A DNA stretch of 64,000 nt, taken from positions 460-64,459 of the IMG/VR virus record IMGVR_UViG_3300002307_000055; one strand, written 5' to 3'. Below the pieces are notes generated by a model that was given only the letters and a program-made list of their open reading frames with translations, did no database searches and was not told the DNA's origin. The translations under genes were made by a program, and so were the position numbers. This document shows positions 43,039-48,300 of the stretch, piece after piece (position 1 is the stretch's first letter; every line of letters begins with the position of its first letter). Source of the stretch: a virus. Its lineage: Duplodnaviria > Caudoviricetes.

Positions 43039-44295
43039 ATGAAACAGACACTATTCATATTGACAATTTTGAGTGTACTATCTGCGAATGGGCAGGTAGA
43101 TACCATGAGGCAACCTAGTAGGGTGTGGGTATTCGGAAAGCCCACCATTTTCAAAGATACCGTCAGAATTGACAGTGCATTAATATTCAGGCATAATCCA
43201 TGTGAAGGGTGTACGCTAACGAGTGATTCATTTGGCAACGCTTCGTGGGTAGATTTCATGCCGTATGTGTGGACTACAGATGGCAATTCAGGCACTAATC
43301 CTACGGTCAACTATGTAGGCACAACCGATTCAGCACAGTTTTACGCTCGTAGTTGGTTCGGTAATGTGAACAATCAAGCATTTCTATTTCTTTCCTCACC
43401 TAAGAGAAGGACGGCATCTACGGGGTCGGCGTTCTTAGCTCTGAGAGATTCATTACATAATAATGGGGGTGTATTCAAGATTAGTTCAACGGGCTTTGAT
43501 ATGATAAGCTCTAATGCTGCGGAGGATACCGATGTAACGGTGCATGGGAGTTGGAAGAATAAAATACTTAGCATAACATCAAATCAAGGTGTACCTAGTG
43601 TGGGGATAGGAACTACTTCACCAATTACAAATTTTGATGTGAGAGGGGGTATAGCTGTAATAACAAAAACTAGCGATGGTGTTCCGATTGGATTTGGTGT
43701 AGGACCGTTCAATCCTTTTGGTAGCTTTAGTTATGGATCTACACCGTCTTTAGTATTTGGTAATCTTACTTCTTTTGGTCTACCAGACTCCTGTTTTGCA
43801 ATAAAGACTGATAGTTCATATTTTTATACTCAATTGTATTATCAAAACGGTTCACAGGGTGCAGGCAAGGTATTAACTTCGGATGCTAATGGCAGAGCTA
43901 CATGGCAAGGCTCTGTTGTTTATCATGTCAGGGATTCAATATCATCTACGCAGATATTAAATAGCTATACAAGCCCTGATACAATAATAATGGGGGCAGG
44001 AGCAGGAACAACTATTAATGTAATTTCAGTAAGATATAAATATGTGTATTCGACAGCACCATATACTATTCCTATAATATGTGGGCTATCTCAATCAGGA
44101 CAATTATTTGAAACGGAATCAACGAATCTACTAGCACTAACAACTAATGCTAATGCAAAATCTGCCGTAGCTACATCTCAAAGTACAATCACATTTTCTA
44201 ATGCGCCAATACTTTACACATCAGTTTCAGGTGACCCAACAGGCGGCGGCGGCTATCTCATTGTTTACATAGACTATACTATTCAACAAGACTAA
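43039..44295 (+). CDS. fibre-like protein with Sec signal peptide
   Basis: MKQTLFILTILSVLSANG|Q; GIGTTSP and GKVLTSDANGRATWQ fibre motifs. Confidence 0.75.
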   Translation: MKQTLFILTILSVLSANGQVDTMRQPSRVWVFGKPTIFKDTVRIDSALIFRHNPCEGCTLTSDSFGNASWVDFMPYVWTTDGNSGTNPTVNYVGTTDSAQFYARSWFGNVNNQAFLFLSSPKRRTASTGSAFLALRDSLHNNGGVFKISSTGFDMISSNAAEDTDVTVHGSWKNKILSITSNQGVPSVGIGTTSPITNFDVRGGIAVITKTSDGVPIGFGVGPFNPFGSFSYGSTPSLVFGNLTSFGLPDSCFAIKTDSSYFYTQLYYQNGSQGAGKVLTSDANGRATWQGSVVYHVRDSISSTQILNSYTSPDTIIMGAGAGTTINVISVRYKYVYSTAPYTIPIICGLSQSGQLFETESTNLLALTTNANAKSAVATSQSTITFSNAPILYTSVSGDPTGGGGYLIVYIDYTIQQD

Positions 44296-44297
44296 TC

Positions 44298-45386
44298 ATG
44301 AAAAAACTACTTATATATCTTTTTGTCCTGATTTCCGTGGGAGTGAGTGCGCAAGGCCCTGTGACCAGCGTAATACCACTAACTAGGGGCGGTTCGATAA
44401 CTATTCCTTATAATGGGATTTACGATGTATCTACTCTATATAGATGTACTACCGATTCAACAGAAAACCATACTGACACACTTGCCACCGATTTAAGTTT
44501 TATATATAGCGGCAGAGCCGCACAGATAGGTACGACATTTACTCTGTGGTTTAACAATACCCACATTATTACAGGCAGCCACAAGATATTTATACTGTCC
44601 AACGACTTCACAAATCTACTGTCAAATCAAGTAAACCTCGAATTGCTATGTCAATATAATGGTCACGCATGGACGGTATTTAGTGTGGATTCTACTATCT
44701 CTTTGAGACTAACAAATTATGTGACACTTACACAGCTTAATGATACGCTAACTAACTATGTACAGCAGGAGCAAATAACCAATACGGTAGATACGCTCGC
44801 GGGTATCAATAGCGGGAACTTTAATAGGATATTAGTACCATTGACATCTACATCTGATAGCTCACTGAACGCTTGGAATAGTGCAGAGGGTAAAAGAGTA
44901 TTGCAGTCATACGCCAAACTAGCTAGTCCTGTTTTTACGGGTGCGCCACTGTCCACTACTCCCGCCACCAATGATAACAGCACCAAGATAGCAACTACCA
45001 ACTTCGTAGATAACTATGTGGCATCTTATGAACCGCCATATTTTCTCTGCGGCGGTACGATAAGCTCAACTGTCGCGCTATCCACCGGTGCAGGCACAGG
45101 GGCAACAGCTACCGTCACAGGCAATGCAGCAGACTTTCAGGTGAACCTCACTACGGGCAGCGCACCTGCCACATCAGCTACGATATGCACGGTGTCTTTC
45201 ACTAACGCCTACCCGAATACTCCATTGGCATATATACAGCCTCGTAACTCCATAGCGGCAGCATCAGCAGCATTTCAACTTGTGATACCATCTGAATCTA
45301 CATCAGGCATATCATTTGTTTCAGGTGGCACAGGACTAGCAGCAACAACTCAATATATTTTTAACGTTCACGTAGGCGCACAATAA
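44298..45386 (+). CDS. fibre-like protein with Sec signal peptide
   Basis: MKKLLIYLFVLISVGVSA|Q; phage tail-fibre repeat YAKLASPVFTGAPLSTTPATNDNSTKIATTNFV. Confidence 0.75.
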   Translation: MKKLLIYLFVLISVGVSAQGPVTSVIPLTRGGSITIPYNGIYDVSTLYRCTTDSTENHTDTLATDLSFIYSGRAAQIGTTFTLWFNNTHIITGSHKIFILSNDFTNLLSNQVNLELLCQYNGHAWTVFSVDSTISLRLTNYVTLTQLNDTLTNYVQQEQITNTVDTLAGINSGNFNRILVPLTSTSDSSLNAWNSAEGKRVLQSYAKLASPVFTGAPLSTTPATNDNSTKIATTNFVDNYVASYEPPYFLCGGTISSTVALSTGAGTGATATVTGNAADFQVNLTTGSAPATSATICTVSFTNAYPNTPLAYIQPRNSIAAASAAFQLVIPSESTSGISFVSGGTGLAATTQYIFNVHVGAQ

Positions 45387-46510
45387 TGAAAAAACTACTA
45401 TTCATATCAGTACTGCTTATCCTTTGCACAATGTGTAAGGCTCAGACACAGTATGTCTATAATGCCTATAACAAAGGTGCATATATACTATTAGTAGATA
45501 GTACCCATAAGGATAGCTTTGCCTATCCTAAAAATACGCTGATAGCTTCACTGAACGGTGGTGCAATACCACAGCTTACATTATCATCTGTGTATTCGGT
45601 ATCTCAGGGTTATGGTACAGGGTATGCAATGGTAGTGGCTACATGGGACAATAGCAACATATACATCTTAGCTCCCAATGTAGATAGTGGGTTTAGAAAG
45701 CTGAACAACATGATATTCAATGATACCTTTGTATTGCAGAACTATATTCAGTATGGTGATACGATTGGTACTATTGCCACAAAAAAGAACTTACAGCTAT
45801 ATGTACCACTTTCTGATACGGGGAGTATAATCCCCACCTTTGCCGATACCTTTAAGACTATAGCAACGGTAAAGTCATTGCAGCCCAAAGTTAATTTCTC
45901 GGATACTACCCTGACGATTGCAACTAAAAAGAATCTTCAAGCAAAAATCAACTTCTCAGACACAGTATCAACTATTGCATCTCAGCATTACGTAAGTACA
46001 CATACCACATCAGCAAGCGGTACAAAGGGAGCTTTGCAATTTAGTATTGGTGGTACATTCAGTTCAACAGCAGCTTTGCATTACAATAGCACCTTTGACC
46101 AATTATTCGTAACAGATAGTGCAGGCAATGGAGGTATTACTACAGGCGGATTAACGCTACTTGATGCTTCAACAAGTGCGGGTTATTCTTTTGTTTATAC
46201 GGGAGCAACAAATGTTGTCAATATACTCCCAAACAATAACAATGCAGGGGTATTGACCAATGATGGGTCTGGAAATCTATCATGGGCAACCATAACACTA
46301 GCAACAGATACATTTGCGGCAACAGGCGGTCAAACATCTTTCACACTCAGCAATACACCACTAGGAAGCGGAAGGGGCAATCTGCAGATGTTTATACAGG
46401 GCTCTTACATTTTGCCAACCTACTATACTAATAGCGGAACAACAGTTACATATACTGGCTCGATAATATCTGCTGGCAATAGAGTGGCATTTACTTACAT
46501 ACACGATTAA
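45386..46510 (+). CDS. fibre-like protein with Sec signal peptide
   Basis: [19 protein letters not shown]|Q; repeated [11 protein letters not shown] units, [14 protein letters not shown]-terminal [10 protein letters not shown] domain. Confidence 0.75.
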
Positions 46511-48300
46511 TGAGAGGCATTATAATTTTTTTTTGTCTTATATCTACTCTCTGTAAAGGGCAATCTTCCTTTTATAATAATGAGTCTGTAGCCACTGCGG
46601 GAACGACTATCTATCTCAATCAGGTTTTGATGTATGTCGGAAATTCAGTTTATCCTTATGACCCTACATCTATTGCAAATGATAGTCTAATAGCAGGTAT
46701 CTCAGAAGGAAATTATAGTACCAATGACCCTGTTACATTCGCAAGGGGAGGGACTATATATAACAATAACGCCTATACCACAGGGGCTTATTATGCTAAC
46801 TTCAATGGAGGTATAACACATTCTACAAATTTAATTGAAAGGGTTAGGCTGATTCAGGTCGGGTACGCATTAGATAATAATACCTTTATAATTTCCTTTT
46901 TTAATGCCCCTAAACCTCTGCTATCACATTACCCATTATACATCGCTCCAAGTGATACGATTTATCTTTTGTATGATACAGTAACGCTTGGTGTAAATAG
47001 TTCTCATGAACTATATGCCGTAGCGGTCACAGGGCCGACAGGGCCACAGGGGGCTACGGGAGTAACGGGTGGCACGGGTGCTACAGGGTCAGGCGGGCCG
47101 ACAGGTGCTACGGGTACTCAGGGAGCTACTGGCGCAACAGGCGTAGGAGTGACTGGTCCTACAGGCTCTACAGGGCCAACGGGAGCTACAGGAACGGGAG
47201 CAACAGGCGGGACGGGTAGTACTGGACCAACGGGTGTAACTGGTAGCACAGGGGTACAAGGAAACACGGGTGCAACTGGCCCAACTGGAAGTACGGGTAT
47301 TCAAGGGGTTACGGGCGCGACAGGGGCTACTGGAGGTACAGGTGCGACAGGCTCAGTAGGCACATTCACCAATCCTCAAATATTATTTGCAGGGGTGAAT
47401 GGTAATGCCACCACAACAACAGCAGTGAGCATAGATAGTACTTTAGGCTCAATCATAGCTACAGGGGCGGCAAAAGACTCTACGTGTTTCTACGGAGGTA
47501 ATAGTGCGGGTAAATCAGAGACAGGAGCTAATAAGCAAAATGTAGTAATAGGTAACGGAGCTGGGACAAAAGCAGCCACTCAAAATACTTTGATAGGGTA
47601 TCAGGCAGGAAACGTATCTACGGGGGGAGACAATACAGGAATAGGAGCTGCATCACTTCAAAAAAATACAGTAGGGTCAAGCAATACAGCAGTAGGATTT
47701 CTGTCATTAAATAGCAATACAAGTGGATTTTACAGTACAGCATTGGGACAGGCTGCTGGTAGTGATTATACTGGGGCCGGAGGGGTTCTTTTCTTAGGAT
47801 TCAATTCGGGTAAAGGTGCAACTAAAGCTAAGAATGCAATATTCATAGAGAATAACTATAATGGGCAATCAATAGCTCAGACTTTAAATAATACAGTTCT
47901 TATAAATCCATTCGGAGATAGCACAACAAAGGTATTCTATTCAGATAGTAGTAAAAAGCAATGCATTTATTGCCCCATGAACCCAAACTCAACATTACAG
48001 GTTGGAGGGTCATTTGCCACTGCCTATAGAGCAGTAACCACTAATGCTACAGCCTCAGTATGGGATTATAAAATAGAATTTACATCGGGGAGTACTGATA
48101 CTTTAACACTCCCAACAGCAGTAGGGATAACAGGCAGGGACTATGTAATTATGAATAATTCAGGGTCAAATGTAGTTGTCAGAACTACTAGCAGTCAAAC
48201 TATAACACCGACTTTACTATCAAATCTAATACCAGTAGCGACGACGGCTACACCATCTTTTAGATTGGTGTCCGATGGGGCAAACTGGAAACAATTTTAA
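46510..48300 (+). CDS. collagen-like fibre with Sec signal peptide and YadA/Hep-Hag-like repeats
   Basis: [17 protein letters not shown]|Q; G-X-T collagen tract; NTAVG.SL..NT repeats; C-terminal TLTLPTA...VSDGANW domain. Confidence 0.8.
47032..47355 (+). repeat. collagen-like G-X-T coding repeat
   Basis: [19 protein letters not shown]... over about 108 codons with a few interruptions. Confidence 0.9.

Follow-up and report, generated by a model that had tools for sequence, protein, structure and literature searches.

Textbook assembly of tailed phages is wholly cytoplasmic. Why, then, should a run of genes in the tail module of such a phage encode proteins that open with Sec-type leaders? The question is raised by a 64,000-nt stretch of phage DNA (positions 460 to 64,459 of IMG/VR record IMGVR_UViG_3300002307_000055; the whole of this stretch is called the window below), which holds four tandem genes of this kind, p1 to p4 (Table 1). 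The initial annotation had described them as four fibre genes with a Sec-type leader and Gln at position +1. It proposed that their products are exported to the periplasm and join the particles when the inner membrane fails at lysis, or else act as surface decoys or adhesins. All four N-termini quoted there are present exactly. Judged from sequence, export of p1–p4 from the cytoplasm is likely. That they are tail-fibre-type host-recognition proteins sent through the host Sec pathway is a reading to which we give an even chance. The relatives used below (L and P numbers) were drawn solely from the protein collection and its contigs.

Leaders with Gln at position +1

The leaders of p1–p4 have n-h-c architecture, with Lys or Arg at positions 2-3, hydrophobic cores of 11-13 residues and small residues at −3/−1; residues −3 to −1 are A-N-G in p1, V-S-A in p2, C-K-A in p3 and C-K-G in p4. 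Cores of this length point to signal peptides and not to membrane anchors. Gln at +1 (the Q-rule) is a phylum-specific mark of Bacteroidetes signal peptidase I (SPI) substrates (Bochtler et al. 2018, PMC5837995), and it is strongly indicated that each of p1–p4 carries a leader of this Bacteroidota type. The starts of the genes are fixed by their tight coupling: the junctions of the array are a TAAATG, a 2-nt gap and two ATGA overlaps.

Leaders are rare in the window. Only 6 of ~80 open reading frames (ORFs) have one, all six with Gln at +1, and four of the six are p1–p4; by our own count, the chance that four of six leader genes among ~75 fall in one run is below ~1e-3. The leader call rests on rules, on conservation and on the motif test described in the next section.

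Leader sequences drift (seven substitutions between p1 and its orthologue in the close relative L002); the architecture and the Gln stay. Leader and Gln were found in 10 of 10 full-length p1 relatives inspected. The syntenic locus L002 has the same four genes with leaders and a fifth, small leader gene; L007 has five leader genes in a row and L013 has two, and the orthologues in all three loci keep their leaders. A leaderless p1 isoform made from a conserved internal start was considered and rejected, as Met23 is absent in the L002 orthologue.

The initial annotation had also stated that the proteins have no lipobox and no obvious C-terminal domain for sorting by type IX secretion (T9SS), and both statements were confirmed. 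The Cys residues in the p3 and p4 leaders are preceded by L/M/F, not by G/A/S, and the p1 and p2 leaders have no Cys. No T9SS domain was matched by p1–p4 in Pfam (E<=0.01) or NCBIfam (E<=0.05), and no other sorting family was matched in these two collections.

Excess of the O-glycosylation motif

General O-glycosylation in Bacteroidota uses the motif D-(S/T)-(A/I/L/M/T/V) (PMC8550257) and is confined to non-cytoplasmic proteins (PMC12871550). We compared the number of these sequons in each protein with the number expected from shuffles of the same protein. Observed and expected numbers were 7 and 1.9 for p1, 5 and 1.4 for p2, 5 and 1.7 for p3, and 7 and 1.8 for p4. Pooled over the mature proteins, 24 sequons stand against 6.7 expected (3.6-fold), a count reached in 0 of 500 shuffles.

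The excess has the specificity of the published motif. When all 20 residues were tested at position 1 of X-[ST]-[AILMTV] in p1–p4, Asp alone was enriched; at position 3 the excess comprised A, I, L, M, T and V, plus F. Phe as the third residue of D-[ST]-X, which lies outside the published motif, occurs 5 times in the mature proteins (0.7 expected).

Leaderless proteins behave differently: 38 of them in the window have 44 sequons in total versus ~38 expected (sum over proteins), which is no enrichment. The same is true of the two S/T-rich leaderless neighbours of the array, with 0 versus 0.7 (the collagen-like protein) and 3 versus 1.2. The split between leader-bearing and leaderless proteins recurs in L002, L007 and L013. 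Of the three lines of evidence for the leaders as export signals, the sequon excess is the strongest, the other two being conservation and the Q-rule. Sequence composition thus strongly indicates that mature p1–p4 have been selected to carry many copies of the host periplasmic O-glycosylation motif.

The export part of the initial proposal is well supported by canonical Q-rule leaders, by their presence in every full-length relative inspected and by the 3.6-fold sequon excess tied to the leader. It applies to p1–p4, and not to every fibre-like gene of the module: the collagen-like and 443-aa genes just upstream are leaderless.

Leader-bearing and leaderless relatives of p2

The p2 family allows the effect of the leader to be separated from that of the fold. 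Its leader-bearing set consisted of p2, the L002 and L007 orthologues, P0050, P0118, P0128 and P0121 (the last one grouped here because its called start falls inside a leader-like segment ending in WG directly before Gln); the leaderless set consisted of P0045, P0066, P0100 and P0170. In the alignment, members of both sets alike have the N-terminal domain, the stalk and the knob. The leader-bearing members have 21 sequons versus 7.3 expected, the leaderless ones 7 versus 8.1, and 145 further leaderless proteins with the tail-fibre repeat 486 versus 637. In this family the motif excess tracks the leader rather than the fold, which matches the prediction of selection for periplasmic glycosylation.

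Two of the leaderless members, P0045 and P0066, occupy the locus of p2 in sister phages (L012 and L014/15), where their immediate neighbours are the collagen-like gene on the 5′ side and a p3 homologue with a leader on the 3′ side. A hidden upstream leader on these homologues was rejected, given that merely 3-8 in-frame codons lie 5′ of their ATG. The existence of intact leaderless homologues suggests that the job of the family needs no periplasm, and this favours a virion role over an envelope role.

Among the best 150 relatives of p2 (1.8 billion representatives searched), a clear Sec-type leader was seen in four, namely P0042 (the query's own sequence) and the full-length orthologues P0050, P0118 and P0128, with P0121 as a probable fifth. 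Such a small number suggests that the leader is a lineage-specific addition to a common fibre module.

Relation of p1–p4 to tail fibres

The fibre assignment made initially stands for p2 and p4, which match tail-fibre profiles; p1 and p3 match no such profile. The motifs quoted there were all found: the tail-fibre repeat YAKLASPVFTG...KIATTNFV in p2, VLTSDANGRATW and GIGTTSP in p1, and collagen repeats in p4. The YadA-like repeats also mentioned are a resemblance by eye, with no Pfam YadA family matched at E<=0.01.

The best match of p2 to PHROG tail-fibre families is at 3.6e-8, and a tblastn search paired its residues 140-244 with proteins annotated as tail fibres in cyanopodophages and Pseudomonas phages. 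The AlphaFold2 (AF2) model of p2 has a leader helix, a beta-sandwich (~23-130), a repeat stalk (~140-245; left unmodelled in the monomer) and a C-terminal beta-sandwich knob (~253-360). Against the viral structures of BFVD the model gave 28 fold matches at E<=1e-3, and many of the neighbours with a name are proteins of tail-fibre or collagen-like type. When solved structures were searched by sequence, p2 had one marginal tail-fibre match (E 0.0098).

Protein p4 matches the PHROG tail-fibre family phrog_6320 at 4.4e-28. It consists of an N-terminal domain, a collagen triple-helix region (~174-285) that matches Pfam Collagen PF01391 at 2.5e-10, above the curated cut-off, and has weak NCBIfam collagen-region matches, then Gly/Asn-rich repeats and a conserved C-terminal domain. 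The C-terminal half had no match in a sequence search of solved structures. With its L002 orthologue p4 is 76% identical.

The body of p1 is made of beta-rich repeats (WxxxGNxGTNxxxNYxGTTD and VLTSDANGxAxW) and a conserved C-terminal domain ending in YIDYTIQ. The protein has 418 aa here and 283 aa in L002 (7190-8041), with both ends conserved; a middle block of ~135 residues, present also in P0001, is missing from the short form, which suggests an insertion or deletion at the level of a domain. In p3, the N-terminal domain (20-125) is conserved and is followed by variable repeats and a variable C-terminal part. This domain also stands alone, in a leader-bearing 103-aa protein of L007. All ESM Atlas neighbours of p3 are viral (score 0.88), which we take as a lead only.

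Comparison of relatives shows where these proteins change. Residues 1-125 of p3 are ~95% identical in the L002 orthologue, and the remainder has diverged far more. Shuffling of modules has occurred between genes of the array; P0038, for example, is a chimera with the ends of p1 and the repeats of p3. A conserved N-terminus combined with an exchangeable distal part is, as far as sequence can tell, the kind of mosaicism seen in fibres that attach to particles. The leader genes of L004 and L013 have tailspike or virion-protein profile matches and lie with virion structural genes on both sides.

Leader proteins of cultured Cellulophaga phages

Leader proteins of similar placement occur in two cultured phages. 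In phage phi18:3 (Pachyviridae, NC_021794), gp085, gp086 and gp087 open with leaders ending in FGYS, GVSA and GLNA, each directly before Gln; the three genes lie upstream of that for the endolysin, and GenBank labels them 'experimental MS/MS proteomics' (MS/MS, tandem mass spectrometry). In the siphovirus phi10:1 (Assiduviridae, NC_021802), gp091-094 have leader and Gln and an MS/MS note in GenBank; among them are a 'tail fiber' and a pectate lyase. No leader is present on gp088-090, which lie upstream. Virion status was taken from the GenBank notes, and the leaders were read from the sequences.

Like p1–p4, these genes are consecutive, three to five in a row, and stand where the tail genes end distally, before the endolysin. 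Their products, a 'tail fiber' and pectate lyases among them, owe the annotation as structural proteins to virion MS/MS. Unlike the window phage, their carriers belong to other phage families. Within the literature searched, no discussion of the leaders of these proteins was found.

Weighing of the alternatives

Several observations weigh against p1–p4 as parts of the virion. Two of the four proteins, p1 and p3, matched no Pfam, PHROG or NCBIfam family, and the AF2 model of p1 was poor (predicted local distance difference test, pLDDT, 43) and unfit for a fold search. Foldseek found no match of the p2 model in the Protein Data Bank (PDB) at E<=1e-3; the best one, to the N-terminal part of CBA120 TSP4, was weak (8e-3). 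No docking partner for p1–p4 on the particle was identified. The leaderless collagen-like and 443-aa proteins could be the real virion fibres, the exported ones having another role. For this phage we infer cleavage, glycosylation and virion presence from sequence.

The Cellulophaga precedent has its own weak points. BLASTP of the Cellulophaga leader proteins against p1–p4 showed no similarity, which makes the precedent one of analogy; those of phi18:3 have no sequon excess; and abundant proteins of the envelope or of vesicles can turn up as well when purified virions are analysed by MS/MS. In the crAss-like Cellulophaga phage phi14:2, a leader was present on 0 of 23 translated structural-module proteins (15 of them MS/MS-annotated). 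An exported-fibre route is therefore not general in crAss-like phages. Taken with the leader-bearing phi18:3 and phi10:1, this suggests that both routes exist among phages of Bacteroidota.

The alternative that survives best, unlikely in our estimate though to be taken seriously, is that p1–p4 are exported envelope or periplasmic proteins built from fibre modules, not virion parts, and serve for receptor masking or envelope remodelling before lysis. Masking of the receptor or its precursors from the periplasmic side might give superinfection exclusion or keep progeny off debris. Envelope proteins encoded beside tail-fibre genes are known from lambda (Lom) and T5 (Llp). Export, on which this alternative depends, is well supported, and the leaderless fibre-like genes upstream, as possible real virion fibres, keep it alive. 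Q-rule leader proteins of Porphyromonas phages have been read as host-envelope modifiers (PMC10367356).

A function confined to the envelope is harder to square with the intact leaderless p2 homologues at the same locus of sister phages, as their function would be independent of the periplasm. The conserved N-terminus, the variable C-terminus and the stalks of collagen and tail-fibre repeats have the look of virion-attached fibres; the leader genes of L004 and L013 are embedded in the virion module; virion MS/MS underlies the annotation of analogous leader proteins in two cultured phages; and no outer-membrane or surface signal was found in Pfam or NCBIfam. The related suggestion of the initial annotation, that of surface decoys or adhesins, has no support, because nothing was found in p1–p4, be it a T9SS domain, a lipobox or some other signal, that would take them across the outer membrane or anchor them in it. 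Its other suggestion, of proteins that join the particles at lysis, fares better: the export part is well supported, and the joining is made plausible by the mosaicism, the profile matches, the leaderless homologues and the MS/MS annotations in Cellulophaga phages.

It is improbable that the leaders are unused, i.e. that p1–p4 are assembled in the cytoplasm with the N-terminal segment kept (for instance, as a membrane-interacting tip) or removed by a phage protease. Tailed-phage fibres are normally cytoplasmic, leader cleavage is here a prediction, and one paper assumes that prohead protease removes leader-like N-termini of capsid proteins (PMC10367356). Still, unused leaders would leave unexplained the Gln at +1 in six of six cases, the canonical −3/−1 residues and the short cores, as well as a motif enrichment seen in leader-bearing proteins only, even within one family.

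A role as lysis accessories (spanin-like or other envelope-disrupting proteins of the lysis cassette) has very little probability. The array does lie directly upstream of the putative holin and endolysin genes, and L002 and L007 have an extra 114-aa leader protein just before the holin-type genes; however, p1–p4 are proteins of 362-596 aa with collagen, tail-fibre repeats and globular ends, with no lipoprotein partner and no membrane anchor, the leader genes of L004 and L013 are not beside lysis genes, and the 114-aa gene is missing from the window. Equally remote is the idea of morons that benefit the host, i.e. adhesins or surface proteins made for the sake of the host: relatives of the p1 domain do occur in proteins named from Bacteroidota genomes, some on contigs of 146-256 kb, but translational coupling ties p1–p4 into a crAss-like phage's late structural operon, the screened part of the window showed no integrase, no outer-membrane sorting signal was found, and two of the large-contig relatives (P0017 and P0020) have no sequon excess.

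Comparison with known exported and cytoplasmic fibres

Virion proteins made with Sec leaders are familiar from filamentous phages (pIII and pVIII); these, unlike the window phage, are tailless and are put together at the membrane with no lysis of the cell. Secreted collagen-like trimers with Sec leaders, folding outside the cytoplasm, are also known (Scl and Lcl); they are cellular adhesins, unlike the phage-encoded p4. Classical tail fibres (those of cyanopodophage Pf-WMP3, Pseudomonas phages, T4 and T7) share with p1–p4 the repeat, stalks made of collagen, a layout in which an N-terminal domain is followed by a stalk and a distal knob, and mosaicism; they are cytoplasmic and, unlike p1–p4, have no leader, and the leaderless p2 relatives have no sequon excess.

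The mosaic adhesive trimer (MAT) fibres of Bdellovibrio bacteriovorus are trimeric, resemble tail fibres, carry a signal peptide and begin with a beta-rich domain (Caulton et al. 2024, PMC10769870). They show that such trimers can fold after export, as is proposed for p1–p4. Unlike p1–p4, they are cellular and belong to the predator's own surface or vesicle, not to a virus particle.

Phages of Porphyromonas gingivalis have five Q-rule genes of unknown function that were read as host-envelope modifiers (PMC10367356). Their products share with p1–p4, and with Bacteroidota Sec/SPI substrates, the leader architecture and Gln at +1; in the window, by contrast, the leaders are on proteins with tail-fibre modules encoded inside a tail operon. 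As to glycosylation, p1–p4 are 3.6-fold enriched in the motif of the O-glycosylation substrates and have its specificity at positions 1 and 3. The substrates known so far are cellular proteins, whereas p1–p4 are phage-encoded and their glycosylation is predicted. A 2025 review of Bacteroidota O-glycosylation makes no mention of phage (PMC12871550), and target proteins of diversity-generating retroelements in phages are without signal peptides (PMC6199706).

In full-text searches of the literature, no paper turned up in which tail fibres of tailed phages are Sec-exported or O-glycosylated by the host. The initial annotation knew of no description of a two-compartment route, and this remark holds within the literature searched in this way.

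Proposed assembly route

We propose, tentatively, a particle built in two compartments, in which exported, trimmed, pyroglutamate-capped and O-glycosylated fibres are added after the holin breach, and phages switch routes by gain or loss of the leader within one fibre family. Late in infection, the precursors of p1–p4 would cross the inner membrane via Sec. Signal peptidase I would cut the leader, and a host cyclase would turn the Gln at position 1 into pyroglutamate. A host O-glycan would then be placed on Ser/Thr of the D-(S/T)-(A/I/L/M/T/V) motifs, and the proteins would fold in the periplasm, probably as trimers. Capsids and tails, with the leaderless collagen-like fibre, would be assembled in the cytoplasm. 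Contact between the two pools would have to wait until the inner membrane is opened by the holin-type proteins; exported fibres might then dock on finished particles via their conserved N-terminal domains.

The steps of Sec export, of cleavage and cyclisation, and of O-glycosylation are inferred from strong sequence evidence; the later steps are conjectural. The whole route, including attachment to virions after failure of the inner membrane, we consider plausible. The later steps are helped by the ability of fibre-less T4 particles to take up fibres in vitro and by the MAT fibres of Bdellovibrio. As likely benefits, glycan and pyroglutamate would serve as a protease shield, and the receptor-binding parts would be kept apart from cytoplasmic precursors.

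Genomic context of the array

The IMG/VR record is linear (64.5 kb, CheckV completeness ~68%), and the window covers almost the whole of it. The terminase matches phrog_6681 and is ~22% identical to terminases of gut crAss-like phages; a P22-like portal is also encoded. Together with the capsid and muzzle matches (Table 1), this identifies the window phage, on sequence grounds, as a distant crAss-like podovirus. From the position of the muzzle gene, the p1–p4 array lies at the distal end of the tail module.

No cultured phage close at the DNA level or in the capsid protein was found: among cultured phages, megablast had no match for the window's 40-50 kb stretch, and tblastn had none for the capsid protein or for p1. 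Scans of IMG/VR with p1, p4, a p3 alignment and a p4 alignment found no related loci. The same DNA is present in freshwater metagenome sequencing runs; no RNA run is among the sequencing runs listed for the stretch.

Table 1. Positions of the p1–p4 genes and of other features in the window
Feature	Positions	Strand	Details
Leader+Gln protein outside the array, 198 aa	7820-8416	+	Sequons 4 vs 0.9 expected
tRNA-Trp	8560-8631		Anticodon CCA
Major capsid protein, crAss-type	16267-17733		Crass_capsid PF23898, 1.2e-19
Muzzle (tail) protein, crAss-type	22505-26965	+	Pfam crAss_MUZ PF25731, 5e-63; crAss_MUZ_C, 2.9e-10
Leaderless 443-aa protein	40543-41874	+	14 Cys; ends ...CQLNCPTC; no family match
Cys-rich ORF, 67 aa	41868-42071		No family match
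Leaderless collagen-like fibre protein, 321 aa	42073-43038	+	Length from the ATG used by relatives
p1 (gene 1), 418 aa	43039-44295	+	Predicted leader, residues 1-18 (MKQTLFILTILSVLSANG), then Gln19; cut after ...SANG
p2 (gene 2), 362 aa	44298-45386	+	Predicted leader, residues 1-18, then Gln19; cut after ...VSA
p3 (gene 3), 374 aa	45386-46510	+	Predicted leader, residues 1-19, then Gln20; cut after ...CKA
p4 (gene 4), 596 aa	46510-48300	+	Predicted leader, residues 1-17, then Gln18; cut after ...CKG
Two small overlapping genes, 96 and 80 aa	48319-48609, 48606-48848	+	One hydrophobic segment each (hydropathy)
Endolysin, peptidase M15, leaderless	48850-49305	+	PHROG phrog_894, 3.4e-32; Pfam Peptidase_M15_3, 3.8e-14
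HNH endonuclease	49623-50543	-	PF01844, 1e-9
Leader+Gln protein outside the array, 225 aa	51634-52311	+	Lys-rich stretch, Gly/hydrophobic C-terminal half; 0 sequons
Primase/helicase-type protein	60983-62854		BT4734-like N-terminal domain (4.5e-18), DnaB C-terminal domain

The collagen-like gene lies directly 5′ of the leader-bearing array in every relative, and the 443-aa gene always precedes it. The small Cys-rich ORF that follows the 443-aa gene in the window was left uncalled in the gene calls of the relatives. Upstream of the 443-aa and collagen-like genes are five very large proteins, the muzzle protein being the first. After the muzzle gene, the region 26965-40479 encodes proteins of 845, 497, 1362 and 1192 aa and a 442-aa protein. 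Pfam and PHROG gave no match for any of them; their position makes them possible cargo or ejection proteins of crAss type.

Downstream of the array, the genes for the 96- and 80-aa proteins are conserved in L002 and had no family match; by position, they are putative holin-type lysis genes. Of the initial placement of the array between tail genes and a holin-endolysin pair, the crAss-type tail genes and the M15 endolysin were confirmed, the holin being putative. L002 (12157-12501) and L007 (8229-8573) have, after the last fibre gene and ahead of the holin-type genes, an extra sequon-rich gene for a 114-aa protein with leader and Gln. This gene is absent from the window, where 18 nt (48301-48318) separate p4 from the next gene.

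The HNH endonuclease gene lies just past the endolysin on the opposite strand. In L002 a different gene, of HNH_3 type (4060-4635), is inserted between the 1189-aa and 443-aa tail genes; both have the look of mobile insertions of homing type, which vary from one sister phage to another. The lone tRNA-Trp gene is situated between the early region and the packaging genes. A BamJ-like NCBIfam match, very weak (E 0.034, far below the cut-off), was obtained for the 225-aa protein, one of the two with a leader that are encoded outside the array. The family name of the BT4734-like domain in the primase/helicase-type protein points to Bacteroides, which fits a Bacteroidota host. No integrase was seen in the screened part of the window.

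Implications

New here are the contrast between leader-bearing and leaderless fibres at one locus, the test of motif specificity, and a crAss-like tail operon in which fibre genes with and without an export leader are neighbours. The pair of p2 and P0045/P0066, together with the two cultured Cellulophaga phages, makes the question directly testable.

If the proposed route is correct, late docking at lysis would be a new step in the assembly of tailed phages, and virions of Bacteroidota phages would carry host-type glycans. Expression of such receptor-binding proteins in the cytoplasm of E. coli would then give a product without the modifications. The finding would also bear on host range, on protease resistance and on the recognition of these phages in the gut and in the environment.

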